In this document: piece by piece, positions 2,946 through 56,985 of the stretch
Position numbering within the stretch: the first letter of the stretch is position 1
How the letters are laid out: every line of letters begins with the position of its first letter
NCBI GenBank assembly: GCA_963745035.1
Contig: CAVUVW010000026.1
Span: 114,789-178,788, forward strand
Length of the DNA stretch: 64,000 nucleotides
Origin: an uncultured delta proteobacterium
GTDB lineage: Bacteria > Desulfobacterota > Binatia > UBA9968
Reading direction: 5' to 3'
The notes under the pieces: model-generated
The model's input: only the letters and a program-made list of their open reading frames with translations
Database searches by the model: none
Told to the model about the DNA's origin: nothing
Made by a program: the position numbers and the translations under genes

Positions 2946-3959
2946 ATGAGTCACCATAGTGTGTTAGCTGTTTTCCTTTTCCTCGGCATAGCGCTTTTTT
3001 CTCTCAACGCTGAAGCTCAGCCCAGGTCAAAAATCGTTATCGGTTACGCCTCGATGAGCTCGGTGGTGACCACGCTCTGGATAGCGCAGGAGAAAGGCTT
3101 CTTTGCCAAAAACGGCCTGGACGTGCAGTCTATATTTATTCCGGGGTCGCCGACGTTGATTGCCACGCTTAACACCGGCGACGTGCATTTAGGTTACACC
3201 GGCGGCACGGCAACACTGGGAGCCGCGGTCGGCGGACTCGATCTGAAAATCGTCGCGTCCTTCGGTAATTTCGTTCAAACCGATTTGGTGGTTCGGCCGG
3301 ACATCAAAACCGCGGCGGATCTCAAAGGAAAGCGCATCGGCGTTACCAGTATCGGAGGAACTGGCTGGATGTCGGCAATGTTGGGCCTGGAGCAGATCGG
3401 TTTGAATCCGGAGCGCGACAAAATCTCGATTGCCGCTTTCGGCGATCAAAGAGTCATTAGCCAGGCTCTGGAATCGGGAACGATCCAAGGCGCTTCGATT
3501 TCCGGAATCTTCAGTCGAAAGTTGAAAAGGGCCGGCTTCAATTTCTTGGGCGATCTGGAAAAGATTCCGCTGGTCGGCACCAGCCTGGTCGTGAAGTCCG
3601 AGTATCTGGCCAGCCATCAACCCATCGTGCGCGGCGCTGTTCGAGCGCTCATGGAAGGCCACGGGTTTGTGTTGAATCCGGCGAACAAGGCGACGGTGAT
3701 CGAAGTCGTAAGCAAGAAACTCGGCATTACCGATCCGGTGGCCGCTAACGATGGTTATGACGATTACGTGCGGCGCACCGACAAGAAAGGCTTTGTCGTC
3801 GTCGACGGACTGAAAAATATTCAGCGCTTCATGAAACTGCGCAATCCAAAGATCGGCGATATCAATCTGGAACGGATGATCGACGAAAGTATTTTGCGAG
3901 AGTTGGAAAAGAGTGGATTTCTTGAACAGGCGATGAGCGGCAAAACCACCGTTCGCTGA
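2946..3959 (+). CDS. ABC transporter substrate-binding protein (NMT1/SsuA-like)
   Basis: Signal peptide; EKGFFAKNGLDV, DLKGKRIGVTSIGG. Confidence 0.85.
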   Translation: MSHHSVLAVFLFLGIALFSLNAEAQPRSKIVIGYASMSSVVTTLWIAQEKGFFAKNGLDVQSIFIPGSPTLIATLNTGDVHLGYTGGTATLGAAVGGLDLKIVASFGNFVQTDLVVRPDIKTAADLKGKRIGVTSIGGTGWMSAMLGLEQIGLNPERDKISIAAFGDQRVISQALESGTIQGASISGIFSRKLKRAGFNFLGDLEKIPLVGTSLVVKSEYLASHQPIVRGAVRALMEGHGFVLNPANKATVIEVVSKKLGITDPVAANDGYDDYVRRTDKKGFVVVDGLKNIQRFMKLRNPKIGDINLERMIDESILRELEKSGFLEQAMSGKTTVR

Positions 3960-3974
3960 AAAGGAGGAGGCGCT

Positions 3975-5066
3975 ATGGCCATCGACGGCATGAAAGTGAT
4001 CGATCTGGACAGTCATCTGGTGGGCGATTTGGAGAGTTGGCATCAAACGGTCGAAGCGAAGTACAAGGATTTTTGCCGCGCAAGCTGCCGACCAAGGATA
4101 ACGAGCGGCGCAAGACTCTGGTCGGCAATCAGATCATGGTCGGTTCCGAGCTTGGCCGGCAAAAGGCGGAAAAGAAGGAGTGGGTCACCGAAGCCGACCT
4201 CACGCCGCAGGGGCGGGTGCGCAATATGAATCTCGATGGCATCGACGTCGCGGTGCTTGTCGCCCAACTCGCCGGCGCTCGATATACTCTGGTTCGCGGA
4301 CGATGCGGAGCTCGGCGCGGCCTACGCGCGGGCGCAAAACAATTACATGAATTGGTACTCCTCGCAGCAGCCCGGCCGCCTCATGTGGGCGGGCGTGATT
4401 CCGCTGCAAGACCCAAAGGAAGCGATCAAAGAGCTGCACCGATCGCGCGAGCTCGGCAGCAAAGCGCTCAATGTGAAGGCGACGCCGATCCCGGGAAAGG
4501 AATGGTGGGACCCGCACTTCGATCCGATCTTCGATGAGCTCGAGAAAACCAAGACGCCGATCATTTTTCACGACACCAAGACCGGCTCCATGGGACATGA
4601 GCGTTTCGCCGATAATTTTTTCTTCTCGCACATGGTCGGGCGCACCATCGAGAGCATGGTTTGCCTGATGGTTTACCTTTGCGGCGGCGTGATGGAAAAG
4701 CACCCGAATTTGAAAATCATCTGCCTCGAGACCGGCGCATCGCAAATGCCCTGGTGGCTGTCGCGCATGGACGAGCACTGGGAAAAGCTGCCGCATCTGG
4801 TTCCCTGGCAGAAGCGCAAGCCATCGGATATTTTCAACGAAAGCGTGTACGTCGGCTGCGAGCCATTCGAAGACGGCCTGTTCGAATGGGCGGTGGAATA
4901 TTTGGGCGGCGACCGGCTCGTGCTGGCGACCGATTCGCCGCATTGGGATTCCTCTCAGCCGGGGCAAGTGACCGGACCGATCTCGCAGAGCACGAAAATT
5001 TCGCAGGAAAATAAGCGGAAGGTGCTCGGCGAGAACGCGATCAATCTTTTGGGCTTGGGTTTGTGA
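3975..5066 (+). CDS. Amidohydrolase_2 family protein, split by two frameshifts (about 4072 and 4258)
   Basis: IDLDSH metal motif, NLDGIDVAVL, PIIFH, LETGA, LATDSPHWD, KVLGENA across three frames; AGGAGG RBS. Confidence 0.85.
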
Positions 5067-51887: not shown

Positions 51888-52577
51888 ATGGCTACGGCAT
51901 CCAGAAAAATAAGCCGAAAAGATCTGCGCCGGCCCGATTGGTTTCAGACGAGTTCCGAAAGGGCGCTGGAATACTTCGATCATCACAAGGCCCTGGTATT
52001 CGCGGCGTTGGCGGGGGTGTTGGTGATTGCCGGCATCGTCTGGGGTTGGCAGCTCTTCAAGGAACGGCAGAATATCGCGGCATCCCAGGAATTCGCCAGA
52101 GCGATGACGCTTTACCAGGCGGAAAAATATCGCGAGGCGATTCCGGTCCTGGAATCCGTCGCCGGCTATCGCTGGTCGCGCTACGCGGTCCTGGCGCACA
52201 TTTATCTCGCCAACAGTTACCTGGCGACGAATGACTTGGACAAAGCGGCGAATGAAGCGCAACGTTCTCTGGCCGGAACCCGGCCGAATAGTTTTTATCG
52301 CCAGATCGCCCTGGTCACGCTGGCGACCACCGAAGAGCAGAAGAAAGACTGCAAAACCGCCGTGCAGCGCTACACCGATGCGCAAAACATCGCCGGCGCT
52401 CTCCAAGGCCGCGCCATGCTCGGCAAAGCTCGTTGTTCGGAAGCGCTGGGCGATACCGCCGCCGCCATTACGGCTTACAAGGACTATTTGAAAGACAATC
52501 CCGGCTCACCGCTGGCGGTGAAGCTCGCGGAACTCGAGGCCAAAAGCCCAGCTGCTACGATGCCGGCCGGAAAGTAG
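51888..52577 (+). CDS. YfgM-like membrane-anchored TPR protein
   Basis: RKDLRRPDWF, one TM helix, TPR-like helices. Confidence 0.8.
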   Translation: MATASRKISRKDLRRPDWFQTSSERALEYFDHHKALVFAALAGVLVIAGIVWGWQLFKERQNIAASQEFARAMTLYQAEKYREAIPVLESVAGYRWSRYAVLAHIYLANSYLATNDLDKAANEAQRSLAGTRPNSFYRQIALVTLATTEEQKKDCKTAVQRYTDAQNIAGALQGRAMLGKARCSEALGDTAAAITAYKDYLKDNPGSPLAVKLAELEAKSPAATMPAGK

Positions 52578-52745
52578 ACTTGCTTTTTGGGTAGACGTAG
52601 AACGTCTGATAAGAAATATTATGTCAACTTCGATGGAAAGCCCGCCTGGCACGCATCTCAAGCTCTGAACTCTTCCCTTTCACGCCCCTCTTCCCTTTTT
52701 CACACACTGAGAGAGCCGCTTTGTTTTTTCTGAAGCGACCGCGCG

Positions 52746-53903
52746 CTAGAAATAGCGCCAGAGCCACCATTTTTCGAAACCGATCTTGGCCCAGTAGATG
52801 AGCCTCGACGGACCCCACGTGCGGGCTTCGGTGGCGCCGAATGGCGGCCAGCCTGATGGATAAATCGTTCGGTTTGCGGCGGCGCGTCCAGCGCCGAACG
52901 CCAGCAGTCATATCGTGTGCAGCCAGAGATCGACCGGGCGGCCTTTGCCGGTGATCTCCACGGCTAGATTGTGAGCAAGGACATCCGCTTCCTGATGCGC
53001 CACGCCGCCGGATTTTGACGCCGGCATATCGGCGCAGTCGCCGATCGCGTAGACGTTGTCCCACTTGGTTCGTAGCGTTTCGTAATCGACCCGAACGCCG
53101 GTTTCCGTCTCCGCCAGCCCGCAGTCGAAAAGCGCCTGCGCCGGTCTATGCGGCGGCACCATGACTAACAAGTCATAAGGAATCTTGTAGCCGTATAGGC
53201 CGGAAACCTCTTTTTTCTCCGGATCGATGGATCGAACGACGAACTCGTAATGCTGTTTGATGTTGCGGCGCCGGCTTTCGACGTCCATCCAGACCACCGG
53301 GCTGCGATACTCGCCGGCAGGCTCGGGATCGCGGGTAAAATATTCGATTTGCACCCGGTCGCGAATGCCGCGCTTCTTAAAGTAGCTGTCGAGCATCCAC
53401 TGCGCCTCATAAGGTGCCGGCGGGCAGCGGTACGGTCCCAGCGGCACGCCGACGACGATACGGCCTTGATGAAACGATTCAAGCTTCTCGCGCAGCCGCA
53501 CCGCGCCGTCGAGCTCCCAGGGATGCATGGATGCTTCGGCAAACCCCGGCACAAGGTCCGGTCTCACCTGCATGCCCAGGGAAACGATTAGATAGTCGTA
53601 GTCAAGCTTCTGGTTTTGCAGCTCGACTTGCTGGCGGTCGGGATCGATGCCCAAAACTTCGGATTGAATGAACTTGACGTTGCGCTTTCCCAGCAGGCCC
53701 AAGCTGCGACTGATCTCGTGGCTCTGGCGCTCGCCGACCATGACGAATAGAAACGCCGGCATGAACAAGTGGTCGGCGCGCTTGTCGACCAGGATCACGT
53801 CGTGCTCGGCACCCAACCTGCTGCCTAGATTGACCGCCGCAACCACCCCACCACTGCCGCCGCCTAAAATTACGATCCGCTTTCGCCGGCCGTTTCTCGC
53901 CAT
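52746..53903 (-). CDS. Sulfide:quinone oxidoreductase/FCSD-like flavoprotein; candidate selenoprotein (UGA at 52908-52910 read as Sec)
   Basis: ILGGGSGG, YRCPPAPYE, VYAIGD; after UGA the frame continues 53 codons: LLAFGAGRA...PSRLIYWAKIGFEKWWLWRYF-TAG. Confidence 0.85.
52866..52900 (-). promoter_or_regulatory. Putative bacterial SECIS hairpin
   Basis: 12 nt after UGA: GGCGC-UGGAC-GCGCC, G-containing apical loop; alternative pairing CGUUCGG/CCGAACG. Confidence 0.55.
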
Positions 53904-53922
53904 CGTTGATGTGTTTCGACGT

Positions 53923-54108
53923 CTACTGTTTCGTGCCGATACGCCGCTGCTCTGAACGGATCGACAAAGCTTTTAAATTTCTTAATCTCTGGTCGCGCCA
54001 TTGCTCCTGCTCGCGGCGCCCCTGGACAGTAAGCTCGTTCCCGAAACGGGAAGTTACGTGAAGAAACTTAAGGATCAATTTATCTGAGAGATCTTTGAGC
54101 CATTCCAT
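53923..54108 (-). CDS. Small hypothetical protein upstream of SQR-like gene
   Basis: 61-aa ATG ORF, 19 bp before the SQR-like start. Confidence 0.45.
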   Translation of the reverse strand: MEWLKDLSDKLILKFLHVTSRFGNELTVQGRREQEQWRDQRLRNLKALSIRSEQRRIGTKQ

Positions 54109-54291
54109 AAAAACGTAGCGTGTAAAAGAACGCGGATTCCGCTGAGATTACATCGGGGCTACAATCGGTGCGCAAGCGCACCCTACCTCATGCGCCTCGC
54201 GTCCTTTTAGTGAACTGTTTGTTTCTTCTTTGGTTGCGGCTACGCTGCTCTCGATTCTCCGTGATGAGACTCGATTTTGAGTTTTCCGCGT

Positions 54292-55260
54292 TTAGCGAAG
54301 GAAGGTATCCTCCTGGCGAAGCTTCTCGCTCGCTTGCAGCAATCCCTGCGGCGTCGGTCCGGCTTCGCCGATGAGTCCTACCTGGCGCAGGAACTGGCCG
54401 ATCTGTTCGTGATCGCGCGGGCTGACAGGAGCGTACGGCCGGCATGGATTGCCGATATCGACGCCAAAATGCTTCATCGCCGATTTCATCACCGGCGGCA
54501 ATCCGTACGCGGCCCATTTTCCGGGAAACAAGGCATAGCAGCGCGCCCAGAAACGCGCGGTCTCGAGATCGCCGGCGCGAAAGGCCCTGACGATCTGGGC
54601 GCCGATGCGCGTGCCTGGCGGCGGCATGGTCGCCCCCGAGCCGCCGAGCATGAGAGTCACCAAGAGCGGCTGCATGGTCGTGAAGTAATGTCCCCTTCCC
54701 GCCAGCTCGATCTGCTCGATCAATCGTGAAATCTTCGTGATATCTCGGGAGCTTTCCTTAAAATACCTGATGTTATCGATCTCGCTGATTTTGACGAACG
54801 CGTCCTGCGGCGGATCGGCGCCCGGTCCGGGATTGTGGTAGCAGGTGACCGGCAGCGCGCTCGCCGACGCCACTTGAGTGTAGAATTCCATCAGCTCGGC
54901 GATGGTCGGCTGTCCGCCCCAGGGGCGCAGCGGCATCAATACCTGGATAAAATCCCCACCCACTTTCGCCGCGTACTCGGCCAGCTCGATGACTTCTCGC
55001 GGCGCCGGACTGGAGCAGCCGAGAATCACCGGCACGCGCTTGTCGATCATCTCGGTGGCGACGCGCAAAAGATCTTTGCGCTCGTCGCGCGAGAGCATGG
55101 TGTATTCGGCCGCCTCGACCGCGGCCACCGTGATCGCGTCGCAGTCTGTGACCAAGAACTCGATCTCTTTTTCGAGGGCCTTGTAATCGACCCGGTCGTC
55201 GGAATCGAACGGCGTCAGACACGCGCCGATGATGCCGTTGATGTGTTTGGTGACCGTCAT
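54292..55260 (-). CDS. Dihydrodipicolinate synthase/NAL-family aldolase-like protein
   Basis: LTPFD, ERK, RVPVILG, YHNP, FKESS Schiff-base Lys; GxxGE replaced by AVEAAE. Confidence 0.85.
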   Translation of the reverse strand: MTVTKHINGIIGACLTPFDSDDRVDYKALEKEIEFLVTDCDAITVAAVEAAEYTMLSRDERKDLLRVATEMIDKRVPVILGCSSPAPREVIELAEYAAKVGGDFIQVLMPLRPWGGQPTIAELMEFYTQVASASALPVTCYHNPGPGADPPQDAFVKISEIDNIRYFKESSRDITKISRLIEQIELAGRGHYFTTMQPLLVTLMLGGSGATMPPPGTRIGAQIVRAFRAGDLETARFWARCYALFPGKWAAYGLPPVMKSAMKHFGVDIGNPCRPYAPVSPRDHEQIGQFLRQVGLIGEAGPTPQGLLQASEKLRQEDTFLR

Positions 55261-55263
55261 GGA

Positions 55264-55920
55264 TTAGTTCAAAATTTCCGCGACCACCCGGGCGTGCCCA
55301 GCGTCGCTCCCCTTCACGCGCAGCGGCAGCGCCATGATGCGCGTGCGCTTGCCGACGATGCTGCCCAAGTTGGCGACGTTCTCCGCAATCAAGACGTCGT
55401 TGCCGAGCAAAGTCCTGTGCACGGGAAAGTCGAACCCTTTGGGGCGCAGCGGCGTCGGCAAATCGACCGTGATGCAGTCGATGCCGAACATTTTGATGCC
55501 CTTTTTCACCATCCATTCGGCCGCGTCCACGCTCAAATACGGGTGCAGATTGTAGTCCGGGCTGTCGAACTTTTCGTCCCAGCCGGTATAGAGCATCAGA
55601 ATATCGCCGCGGTTCACGCCGACACCCGAAGCCTCGAGGTCCTTGGCCGTCACCTCTTCGCCGCCTTGTTTCTTGACCGCGATCACCGCGCCCGGTCCGA
55701 CGAAGGCGTCGAGCGGCAGTTGCTCGATCGATTTGCCATTGGGGACGATGTGGATCGGCGCGTCCACGTGCGTGCCGGCGTGGCACGGCAGCGACAGTTC
55801 GGTGACGTTCAGCGGGTGGCCCTTGTCGAGGCTCAAGAATTTTTGCACGTGCACGTCCGGCAGCACCGGAATCTTCGGCATGCCGTCGTAAATCAGGCGC
55901 GAGAGATCGACCATTTCCAT
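55264..55920 (-). CDS. Cyclase family metal hydrolase (KynB-like)
   Basis: HAGTHVDAPIH, YTGW, GID, VHRTLL, AENV. Confidence 0.9.
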   Translation of the reverse strand: MEMVDLSRLIYDGMPKIPVLPDVHVQKFLSLDKGHPLNVTELSLPCHAGTHVDAPIHIVPNGKSIEQLPLDAFVGPGAVIAVKKQGGEEVTAKDLEASGVGVNRGDILMLYTGWDEKFDSPDYNLHPYLSVDAAEWMVKKGIKMFGIDCITVDLPTPLRPKGFDFPVHRTLLGNDVLIAENVANLGSIVGKRTRIMALPLRVKGSDAGHARVVAEILN

Positions 55921-55924
55921 ATCT

Positions 55925-56665
55925 TCACATTCCTTTCCGCCAGCCTGCGTAGAGTGGATCTTCGTCCACAAACGCCCGCTTGATGCCGTCGAAGGCGAGC
56001 CAAAACTGATCGAGGGTTTTTTGCACCGAGCTGCGCACGAGCGCCTGCTGCGGCTCGGTCACGGCATAGCGCTCCACCGCCAGCGGCCCGACTTTCATGT
56101 GCTCCTCGTCGACGCCCATGTGCAGAGTCCAGTAGCGAATATCGTCGGAATCGCGCTGAAAGCCGTAGTGCTTCGTCAGACCGTTTACGATCCGGGTCAT
56201 GCGCTCGTTGGCGGTTCCTTCAAGACAAAAACCCTGGCAGGCATAAAGCTCAAGCCAGCTTCTCTGATACATCAAGAGCTCGCGCCAGTCGAGAAACGCT
56301 TGAGTTTCCGGCAGCGGCTGCACGCCATCCAGCTCTGTCCTGGTAAAGCCGCAGGCCTGGGCAAAACGGATGAATAATCCCTTGTGGCTATCCGTACCGG
56401 TGATCTCGCCGGTGCCTTCTTCCACCACATTTTCGATCCACATTTTTTCCAGCTCCGGATCGTCCGGACAGCGGCTGAGCATCGCGGCAATCGGTTTGGG
56501 AAACGGTTTCGGAAAAAACAGATAGAACTGGCCGACGAACCCTTTCAACTGATTCCGCGCCAGCTTTCCCTCTTCGATCAAACCGATGATCGGATGATTT
56601 TTCGAGTGCTTTGCCCGCACCATCTGCTGAATTTCTTTAACGAAGTCCTTGCTCGAAACACCCAT
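55925..56665 (-). CDS. Heme-oxygenase-like diiron enzyme (CADD/PqqC/TenA fold)
   Basis: ENVVEEG...SH, CLEG, LHMGVDEEH ligand pattern; AAGGAG RBS. Confidence 0.8.
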   Translation of the reverse strand: MGVSSKDFVKEIQQMVRAKHSKNHPIIGLIEEGKLARNQLKGFVGQFYLFFPKPFPKPIAAMLSRCPDDPELEKMWIENVVEEGTGEITGTDSHKGLFIRFAQACGFTRTELDGVQPLPETQAFLDWRELLMYQRSWLELYACQGFCLEGTANERMTRIVNGLTKHYGFQRDSDDIRYWTLHMGVDEEHMKVGPLAVERYAVTEPQQALVRSSVQKTLDQFWLAFDGIKRAFVDEDPLYAGWRKGM

Positions 56666-56985
56666 GAACCCGGCTCCTTGCCTCGCTCGCGCTTTGGCAT
56701 GATGCGACGACGCATGTGCCAAAATATTTTCGATTCTCACGGAAGAAGTTTCACCCTACATCGTAGTCCGCCGGAAAATCAAGTTTACATAGCCCAACTC
56801 TGTTCGCAACGCATGCGGAGACTTCCATATTATTAGGCCGGCGGCAACGACAACATTTTTCGCGGCGGAACGAAGGGTACTTGATTCGACCGGTTTCCGG
56901 TAGGAGGATGGCGATACAGCGCAACGTTTTCTATGAAGACAATTCTTACTCTTCCAGTGGAAGTCTACAACGACCTTCTCGGCAA

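Follow-up and report, generated by a model that had tools for sequence, protein, structure and literature searches.

Does the TGA that interrupts a flavoprotein gene on the minus strand of contig CAVUVW010000026.1 end the protein, or is it read as selenocysteine (Sec), and which reaction would a Sec enzyme of this kind serve? The window analysed here is a 64,000-nucleotide stretch of that contig (positions 114,789 to 178,788; assembly GCA_963745035.1, 7.4 Mb in 28 contigs), which comes from an uncultured delta proteobacterium (Desulfobacterota; Binatia; UBA9968). Within it, a minus-strand open reading frame (ORF) runs from an ATG at 53903 to a TGA at 52910-52908, with DLWLHTI as its last residues. 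Past the TGA, the same frame stays open for 53 codons and ends in a TAG at 52748-52746, so the full coding sequence (52746..53903, 385 codons plus TAG) would give a read-through product of 385 amino acids. An earlier reading made from the sequence alone (hereafter the sequence-only reading) had reported both the stop and the 53-codon extension, and both are present. As a whole, the locus is probably best explained as a gene for a 385-residue flavoprotein that binds flavin adenine dinucleotide (FAD) and belongs to the sulfide:quinone oxidoreductase (SQR) family, with UGA 332 as Sec.

The TGA codon and the second redox residue

The read-through protein matches Pyr_redox_2 (PF07992; 2.3e-21) and FCSD_central (PF21706; 3.3e-9), and carries the FAD motif LGGGSGG at residues 13-19. 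Its top PDB matches are human SQOR (1.2e-34), the SQRs of Acidianus and Aquifex, and flavocytochrome c sulfide dehydrogenases. The CPPAPYE motif, which the sequence-only reading had singled out, is present and holds Cys160 (codon at 53424..53426, minus strand, computed from the ATG at 53903); this residue aligns to the cysteine of human SQOR PVKCAGAP (human Cys201). The in-frame TGA (52908..52910, minus strand), read as U332, is matched to the cysteine of YTSC in human SQOR (Ser378-Cys379), which agrees with the earlier proposal that the UGA occupies the position of the second redox cysteine. In our alignment of homologs (A1), the column of Cys160 is invariant, and the column of residue 332 is invariantly Cys or Sec. 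Cys-type homologs at 33–41% identity have Cys there, as does P0048, a metagenomic protein of 385 residues and 69% identity that reads ELHTIC-LLAFEPGKAAAN, so that U falls on Cys when the 385-residue protein is aligned to its relatives. The genome, like several of its relatives, also encodes a second, uninterrupted SQR/NDH-2-like paralog of 30% identity (C11:181215-182174, minus strand).

The residues directly after the TGA are LLAF-G-A-G-R-A, and the whole 53-codon C-terminal tail (LLAFGAGRAAANR...WAKIGFEKWWLWRYF; 52749..52907, minus strand) would be made only upon read-through of the UGA. To follow the codon among relatives, we searched 61 genomes of the same genus, family, and order, spanning three families of one order (the set includes the unpublished G005 and G035, and no conclusion rests on either). 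An orthologue 68–90% identical to the window protein is present in 53 of these and absent from eight. All 52 orthologues that cover the site (48 as single matches, four as split matches) keep the TGA, with one TGA each; the match in G028 ends short of the site and was left out. The 40 loci that were read all have LHTI-TGA, then exactly 53 codons, then TAG, TAA, or TGA.

In a named species collection, the TGA is found in 21 of 22 loci of at least 50% identity, the other (L085) being unaligned across the site; among these TGA loci are metagenome-assembled genomes (MAGs) labelled Acidobacteria, Chloroflexota, Dehalococcoidia, and Thermomicrobiaceae. The collection and the 61-genome set are drawn from the same species set, and their counts overlap. 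Across 80 loci of the collection, the catalytic column holds TGA in 23 and TGY in 54, while it is offset by two residues in two loci (Chloroflexus-type VMC) and unaligned in one. The alternation of TGA and TGY that the sequence-only reading had proposed to look for at this site thus exists among the relatives.

The tail evolves as coding sequence. Its pN/pS is 0.173, against 0.169 in the 53 codons before the TGA, and pairwise differences at the three codon positions are 0.116/0.084/0.416 in the tail and 0.119/0.083/0.430 in the upstream 53 codons. These figures bear on the possibility that the TGA is a true stop, in which case the gene would yield a truncated product of 331 residues, or be a pseudogene, and the downstream frame would be an untranslated relic. 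Every gene caller does stop at this codon, and 119 of the 120 best database matches, named “FAD-dependent oxidoreductase” or “sulfide:quinone oxidoreductase,” are only 311–344 residues long; that standard annotation would truncate the protein had been foreseen. It is also common for the frame to stay open for 53 or more codons past a stop, as it does after 24 of the 51 long ORFs of the window. A true stop nevertheless leaves unexplained a TGA held at the same codon in every covering orthologue down to 68% identity and in clade members down to 50%, a tail under the same constraint as the gene body, and an exact tail length in 40 of 40 loci. The truncated product would, moreover, be without the second catalytic residue that every homolog keeps. 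We regard this explanation as extremely improbable.

Nor was the TGA introduced by assembly. The codon is spanned by contigs of three other DNA runs (from three studies; one of the runs may be the source sample), and no differing letter is listed at 52908-52910; the sequencing-error check proposed earlier thus shows no other letter at the TGA in independent contigs. Global reassignment of TGA was considered and ruled out, as TGA terminates 14 of 38 long ORFs of the window; in some relatives, the read-through frame itself ends in TGA. Searching a large protein database with the tail alone (residues 333-385) gave 18 candidates, none of which scored; this search has low sensitivity, having missed P0048, and is no evidence on the number of full-length forms.

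Selenocysteine machinery and the SECIS-like hairpin

The genome encodes the machinery that Sec decoding requires. On contig C17, selA (592 bits), selB (347), and selD (385) adjoin one another at C17:315264-319742, and a tRNA-Sec (76.7) lies about 50 kb away at C17:371273-371363, all above their cut-offs. The selD gene has one in-frame TGA, and SelD here is itself a selenoprotein. Among relatives that carry the TGA gene and are closed as single contigs, five of five contain both selB and tRNA-Sec. The genome-wide check for selA, selB, selC, and selD named in the sequence-only reading is thereby answered in favor of Sec; no tRNA genes were found within the window itself.

A hairpin resembling a Sec insertion sequence (SECIS) follows the TGA (52875..52906, minus strand). 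Its core, GGCGC-UGGAC-GCGCC, lies at 52895-52881, 12 nt past the UGA, just where it had been described from the letters; the core stem pairs 52895-52891 with 52885-52881, and the apical loop UGGAC occupies 52890-52886. Published rules for bacterial SECIS elements call for a loop of 3–9 nt, an upper stem of 4–16 bp, a G in the first two loop bases, a distance of 16–37 nt from the UGA, and a minimum free energy (MFE) of at most -7.5 kcal/mol (PMC13188914). The window hairpin lies within all of these limits, with a 5-nt loop, a core stem of 5–6 bp, 17 nt from UGA to loop, and an MFE of -15.9 kcal/mol. Across relatives, the loop is again 5 nt with a G at position 2 (one family has a GGA loop) and sits on a core stem of 5–7 bp; it lies 17 nt from the UGA, and the MFE is below -7.5 kcal/mol. 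The hairpin, which is encoded by the G-A-G-R-A codons, retains its core in all 40 sequences. Third-codon sites in the stem are nearly frozen (entropy 0.17, 0, and 0.29 bits, with Arg always CGC), and variation is seen at the four-fold sites of the loop and flanks (0.75–1.71 bits).

Predicted hairpins after the UGA also occur in members of NF049943, the curated NCBIfam model of Sec-type SQRs described below. In L069 (1487-1539, minus strand), the hairpin AGGCU-UCGGGA-AGCCU lies over the equivalent G-x-G-K-A codons, and in L068 (2506-2558, plus strand) the predicted hairpin is placed further downstream. In the Cys-type P0048, the corresponding residues are E-P-G-K, and by the genetic code their codons are incompatible with the hairpin.

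Following the standard bacterial mechanism, SelB carrying Sec-tRNA(Sec) would bind the hairpin and deliver Sec at the UGA in competition with release factor 2. Alternatively, the UGA could be read through by a standard aminoacyl-tRNA, either a near-cognate Trp or Cys tRNA or one favored by a local recoding signal, with the hairpin as a possible general enhancer of read-through; that the hairpin is without covariation and has an unexceptional energy would fit such a role. What argues for Sec-tRNA(Sec) instead is the Cys found at this column in homologs without the TGA, a classic signature of Sec, together with selB and tRNA-Sec in this genome and in all five closed relatives. The loop G-G and the spacing are as in bacterial SECIS elements, and Sec also occupies this column in proteins that score above the cut-off of the curated selenoprotein model. 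Read-through by a standard tRNA accordingly seems very unlikely to us.

Several observations weigh against this explanation of the locus or limit single lines of its evidence, and we collect them here. The open frame has little force as a sole signal, for besides the long ORFs counted above, 21% of all stop-to-stop intervals in the window reach at least 53 codons. The energy of the hairpin is ordinary for a G+C-rich sequence (z = -0.67 and -0.16 against dinucleotide shuffles). Compensatory double changes were found in none of its seven pairs, the only stem changes being C to U opposite G, and codon bias (GGC, CGC, and GCC are favored in this 58% G+C genome) may explain part of the freeze in the stem. 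The flavoprotein lies on a different contig from the sel genes in a MAG with 5.8% contamination, a minor concern given the closed relatives. Contigs from an RNA library (run X15) cover three parts of the flavoprotein gene but not the TGA, and so speak neither for nor against transcription of the tail. The best NCBIfam model, NF049943, scores the protein at 258.9 bits, under its cut-off of 525. Finally, actual incorporation of selenium into the protein is a prediction from sequence. An Rfam scan of 52500-54400 gave no match at E<=1.

Taken singly, the open frame and the fold energy are thus no more than expected by chance, and the signal for Sec comes from homology and conservation. Because the TGA is conserved, the tail is coding, the column alternates between Sec and Cys, the hairpin and the machinery are present, and TGA is a normal stop elsewhere, we consider with high confidence that the TGA at codon 332 is decoded as Sec.

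Relation to known Sec-type SQRs

In 2025, deep-Sep (Xiao & Zhang 2025; PMC12013277) predicted a Sec form of the type III SQR. The corresponding curated model, NCBIfam NF049943, credits deep-Sep and has Sec at the same column as the window protein. The kind is therefore already known, and the window clade is a sister group that the curated model misses; deep-Sep may already list TGA-containing homologs, members of this clade possibly among them. The statement in the sequence-only reading that no characterized Sec form of this family was known hence needs to be divided: a Sec form had been predicted (PMC12013277), but our literature search found no biochemical study of any Sec-type SQR.

The two groups share the family, the Sec column, and the HxxU motif (H-T-I-U in the window protein), and a hairpin over the G-x-G-K/R-A codons is common to both, being seen in one of the two NF049943 members compared (L069). 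They differ in being only 33–35% identical, in the shortfall of the window protein on the NF049943 model, in the motif around the first cysteine (CPPAPYE in the window clade, CPVAPLE in NF049943), in a C-terminus about 25 residues shorter in the window clade, and in a cluster of neighboring genes, discussed below, that accompanies the window clade only. A scan of 401 genomes of the phylum of the window gave two TGA-containing homologs, P0122 and P0123, at 35–36% identity. Read through, these score 652.5 and 664.9 bits on NF049943 and are true members. Their Sec residues (U331 and U332), the Sec of the window protein, and the Cys of Cys-type homologs share one invariant column of alignment A1.

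We placed these proteins in a quick maximum-likelihood tree (LG+G4, SH-aLRT) of 82 rows, in which 18 of 63 clade rows were kept to avoid near-duplicates and L085, L091, L093, and L099 were dropped as incomplete or interrupted. The window clade (17 Sec rows and the nested P0048) forms one group with a support of 99. Its sister group, also with a support of 99, is made up of two NF049943 members, one Cys form, and the Cys forms of Chloroflexus. Sec occurs at the catalytic column in at least four places in the tree, and at least six switches between Sec and Cys are needed to explain it. The “type III” label as applied to the window protein is provisional, since it rests on the name of the NCBIfam model and on the sister relation to its members in a tree with no reference type III sequence.

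P0048, the Cys form nested within the Sec clade (support 99), has E-P-G-K where the Sec forms have G-A-G-R, and looks like a reversal from Sec to Cys with loss of the hairpin-encoding codons. Two further loci have a TGA at the catalytic column outside both the window clade and the NF049943 group. L109, from a MAG labelled Methylomirabilia (match 3001-4092), reads GNGYU-ILEMG and stands next to a Cys form, and L144, from a MAG labelled Bacillota (match 3001-4098), reads GNGAU-IMNTG and sits on a long branch. Together, these suggest repeated switching between Cys and Sec.

Comparison with the Cys-type type III SQRs (SqrC) of Caldivirga maquilingensis and Methylacidiphilum fumariolicum, as described in PMC10205796 and PMC9666304, shows the same two-residue redox center, FAD fold, and short C-terminal amphipathic region, with the second Cys replaced by Sec in the window protein. 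Human mitochondrial SQOR (type II; PDB 6oi5 and 8dhk) is the best match of solved structure, and places Cys160 and U332 on its catalytic pair. The alignment ends soon after the catalytic residue, however, and the C-terminal membrane region differs, as does the catalytic residue itself, which in the human enzyme is Cys rather than Sec.

Function, gene neighborhood, and distribution

Granted Sec decoding, the remaining question is what the flavoprotein does. In the predicted enzyme, Sec332 would stand in for the catalytic cysteine nearer the C-terminus (human SQOR Cys379) and, together with Cys160 (human Cys201), would form a redox center beside the flavin, possibly as a selenenylsulfide or as a sulfane-bridged selenotrisulfide. 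If the reaction follows that of SQRs, sulfide or a similar nucleophile would attack the Cys-S(-S)-Se-Sec bridge, the electrons would pass via FAD to a quinone as the putative acceptor, and the sulfane sulfur would depart from the Sec side. Sec is both a better nucleophile and a better leaving group than Cys. Mammalian thioredoxin reductase, which belongs to the same broad superfamily of two-dinucleotide-binding flavoproteins, has a Cys-Sec pair whose selenenylsulfide works with the flavin, and offers a precedent for a disulfide center of a flavoprotein being made more reactive by Sec. It differs in that its Sec is part of a GCUG tail at the C-terminus, remote from the flavin, its electron donor is NADPH, and its SECIS is of the eukaryotic type, in the 3′-UTR. 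The human SQOR counterpart of the center proposed here is the catalytic trisulfide Cys201-S-S-S-Cys379 (PMC12589024).

The alignment of Cys160 and U332 bears out the Cys/Sec redox pair put forward by the sequence-only reading. Its proposed substrate (sulfide, polysulfide, or selenide) gained no such support, and sulfide as substrate and quinone as acceptor would follow only by analogy with SQRs. The Sec is flanked by the apolar residues Ile331 and Leu333, and an aromatic C-terminal stretch, FEKWWLWRYF, is conserved. These features resemble the quinone site of type I SQRs, where apolar residues surround the conserved Cys (PMC9666304), and on this likeness a similar site may be present here. On balance, we lean slightly towards a true sulfide:quinone reductase function.

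Three points tell against that function. The tail, at 53 residues, is short, and its alignments to PDB proteins are weak (the C-terminal 103 residues give only matches of E about 0.2 that end just after the catalytic residue), so that membrane and quinone binding are only putative. No sulfur-metabolism gene adjoins the flavoprotein, and no TusA, DsrE, or rhodanese-type neighbor was seen at the window locus, whereas the type III SQR operon of Methylacidiphilum includes the sulfur carriers TusA and DsrE2 (PMC10205796). Lastly, the locus does not look like one for sulfide detoxification. Having conserved neighbors and no sulfur-carrier gene among them weakens the simple assumption of sulfide detoxification, and motivates a rival account of the function.

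The neighbors all lie upstream of the flavoprotein and in the same orientation. What appears as a 388-nt upstream gap contains a 61-residue ORF (53923..54108, minus strand; MEWLKDLSDK...WRDQRLRNLK...) that ends 19 nt before the flavoprotein ATG, has no match in Pfam at E<=1, and is a candidate partner or anchor. By tblastn, it is found at 58 of 62 clade loci and at none of 66 non-clade loci, the four misses being three distant clade members and one locus without upstream flank. Its pN/pS is 0.34 (29 sequences), it has conserved motifs (alignment A4), and in some relatives the small ORF is longer, with an N-terminal hydrophobic stretch. Beyond a gap of about 183 nt follow, on the same strand, a DHDPS-family gene (54292-55260) that scores under the dapA cut-off, a cyclase/arylformamidase-like gene (55264-55971), and a Haem_oxygenas_2/CADD/PqqC-like gene (55925-56740).

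The DHDPS-like gene adjoins the flavoprotein locus in 19 of 22 and 19 of 20 clade loci (38 of 42), and is adjacent in a changed order in L084, L086, and L087, from MAGs labelled as other phyla. Its product is 86–96% identical among the close relatives L023-L041, and is more conserved than the flavoprotein. None of the 66 Cys-type or NF049943-type homologs has a DHDPS-like, cyclase-like, or CADD/PqqC-like gene nearby. New here is that the conserved 61-residue ORF and the DHDPS-like, cyclase-like, and CADD-like cluster accompany this clade only. Across the 61 genomes, the DHDPS-like gene and the Sec gene occur together in 53 and are both missing from six, while two have the DHDPS-like gene only and none has the Sec gene only; we rejected this co-occurrence as independent evidence, because adjacent genes vanish together in incomplete MAGs.

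These observations could mean that the protein is a genuine selenoprotein but no sulfide:quinone reductase, its Sec/Cys-FAD center serving some other thiol, persulfide, or selenium substrate in a dedicated module with the 61-residue protein and the DHDPS-like, cyclase-like, and CADD/PqqC-like enzymes. This account concerns function only, and Sec decoding is common to it and to the explanation we prefer. It draws on the restriction of the small ORF to the clade, on the DHDPS-like gene that stays close even where the order has been rearranged, on the missing cluster beside other homologs, on the lack of sulfur-carrier neighbors seen in comparison with the Methylacidiphilum operon (PMC10205796), and on the position of the clade under the NF049943 cut-off. 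The protein nevertheless has the two redox residues of SQRs, their FAD fold, and their apolar surroundings of the catalytic residue; gene order among kin is partly inherited; co-absence of adjacent genes is trivial in incomplete MAGs; and the gap of about 183 nt possibly separates two transcription units. We know of no pathway that joins the DHDPS-like, cyclase-like, and CADD/PqqC-like families, which also counts against the module. A function other than sulfide:quinone reduction appears unlikely, though it carries real weight.

A more specific version, which we hold still more doubtful, is that the Sec flavoprotein could be the redox part of a five-gene module that moves between phyla, rather than a sulfide-detoxifying SQR. 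A CADD/PqqC-like di-iron enzyme, a cyclase/arylformamidase-like hydrolase, a DHDPS-like aldolase, and the 61-residue protein as dedicated subunit or membrane anchor would then act with it to convert a small organic molecule in a sulfur- or selenium-linked reaction not yet described.

The clade is broad in both taxonomy and habitat. Record titles of close relatives include “uncultured delta proteobacterium,” Thermodesulfobacteriota, Syntrophobacter sp., Syntrophobacteraceae/Syntrophobacterales, and Candidatus Binatia, and members at 50–64% identity occur in MAGs labelled Acidobacteria, Chloroflexota, Dehalococcoidia, and Thermomicrobiaceae. Of the DNA runs, 14 contain half or more of the sampled words of the gene, and 20, from ten studies, contain some part of it; the labelled runs with the gene are soil, rhizosphere, and winery metagenomes.

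For a selenoprotein branch as widespread as this one, found in 53 of 61 related genomes, databases show a 331-residue fragment without its catalytic residue, and a wider NF049943 model, or a sister model to it, would correct many genomes. Repeated switching between Sec and Cys would make the SQR-like family a natural system in which to study the benefit of Sec over Cys in persulfide chemistry, and the clade-specific small ORF and its neighboring enzymes offer a testable lead to a role other than classical sulfide oxidation.

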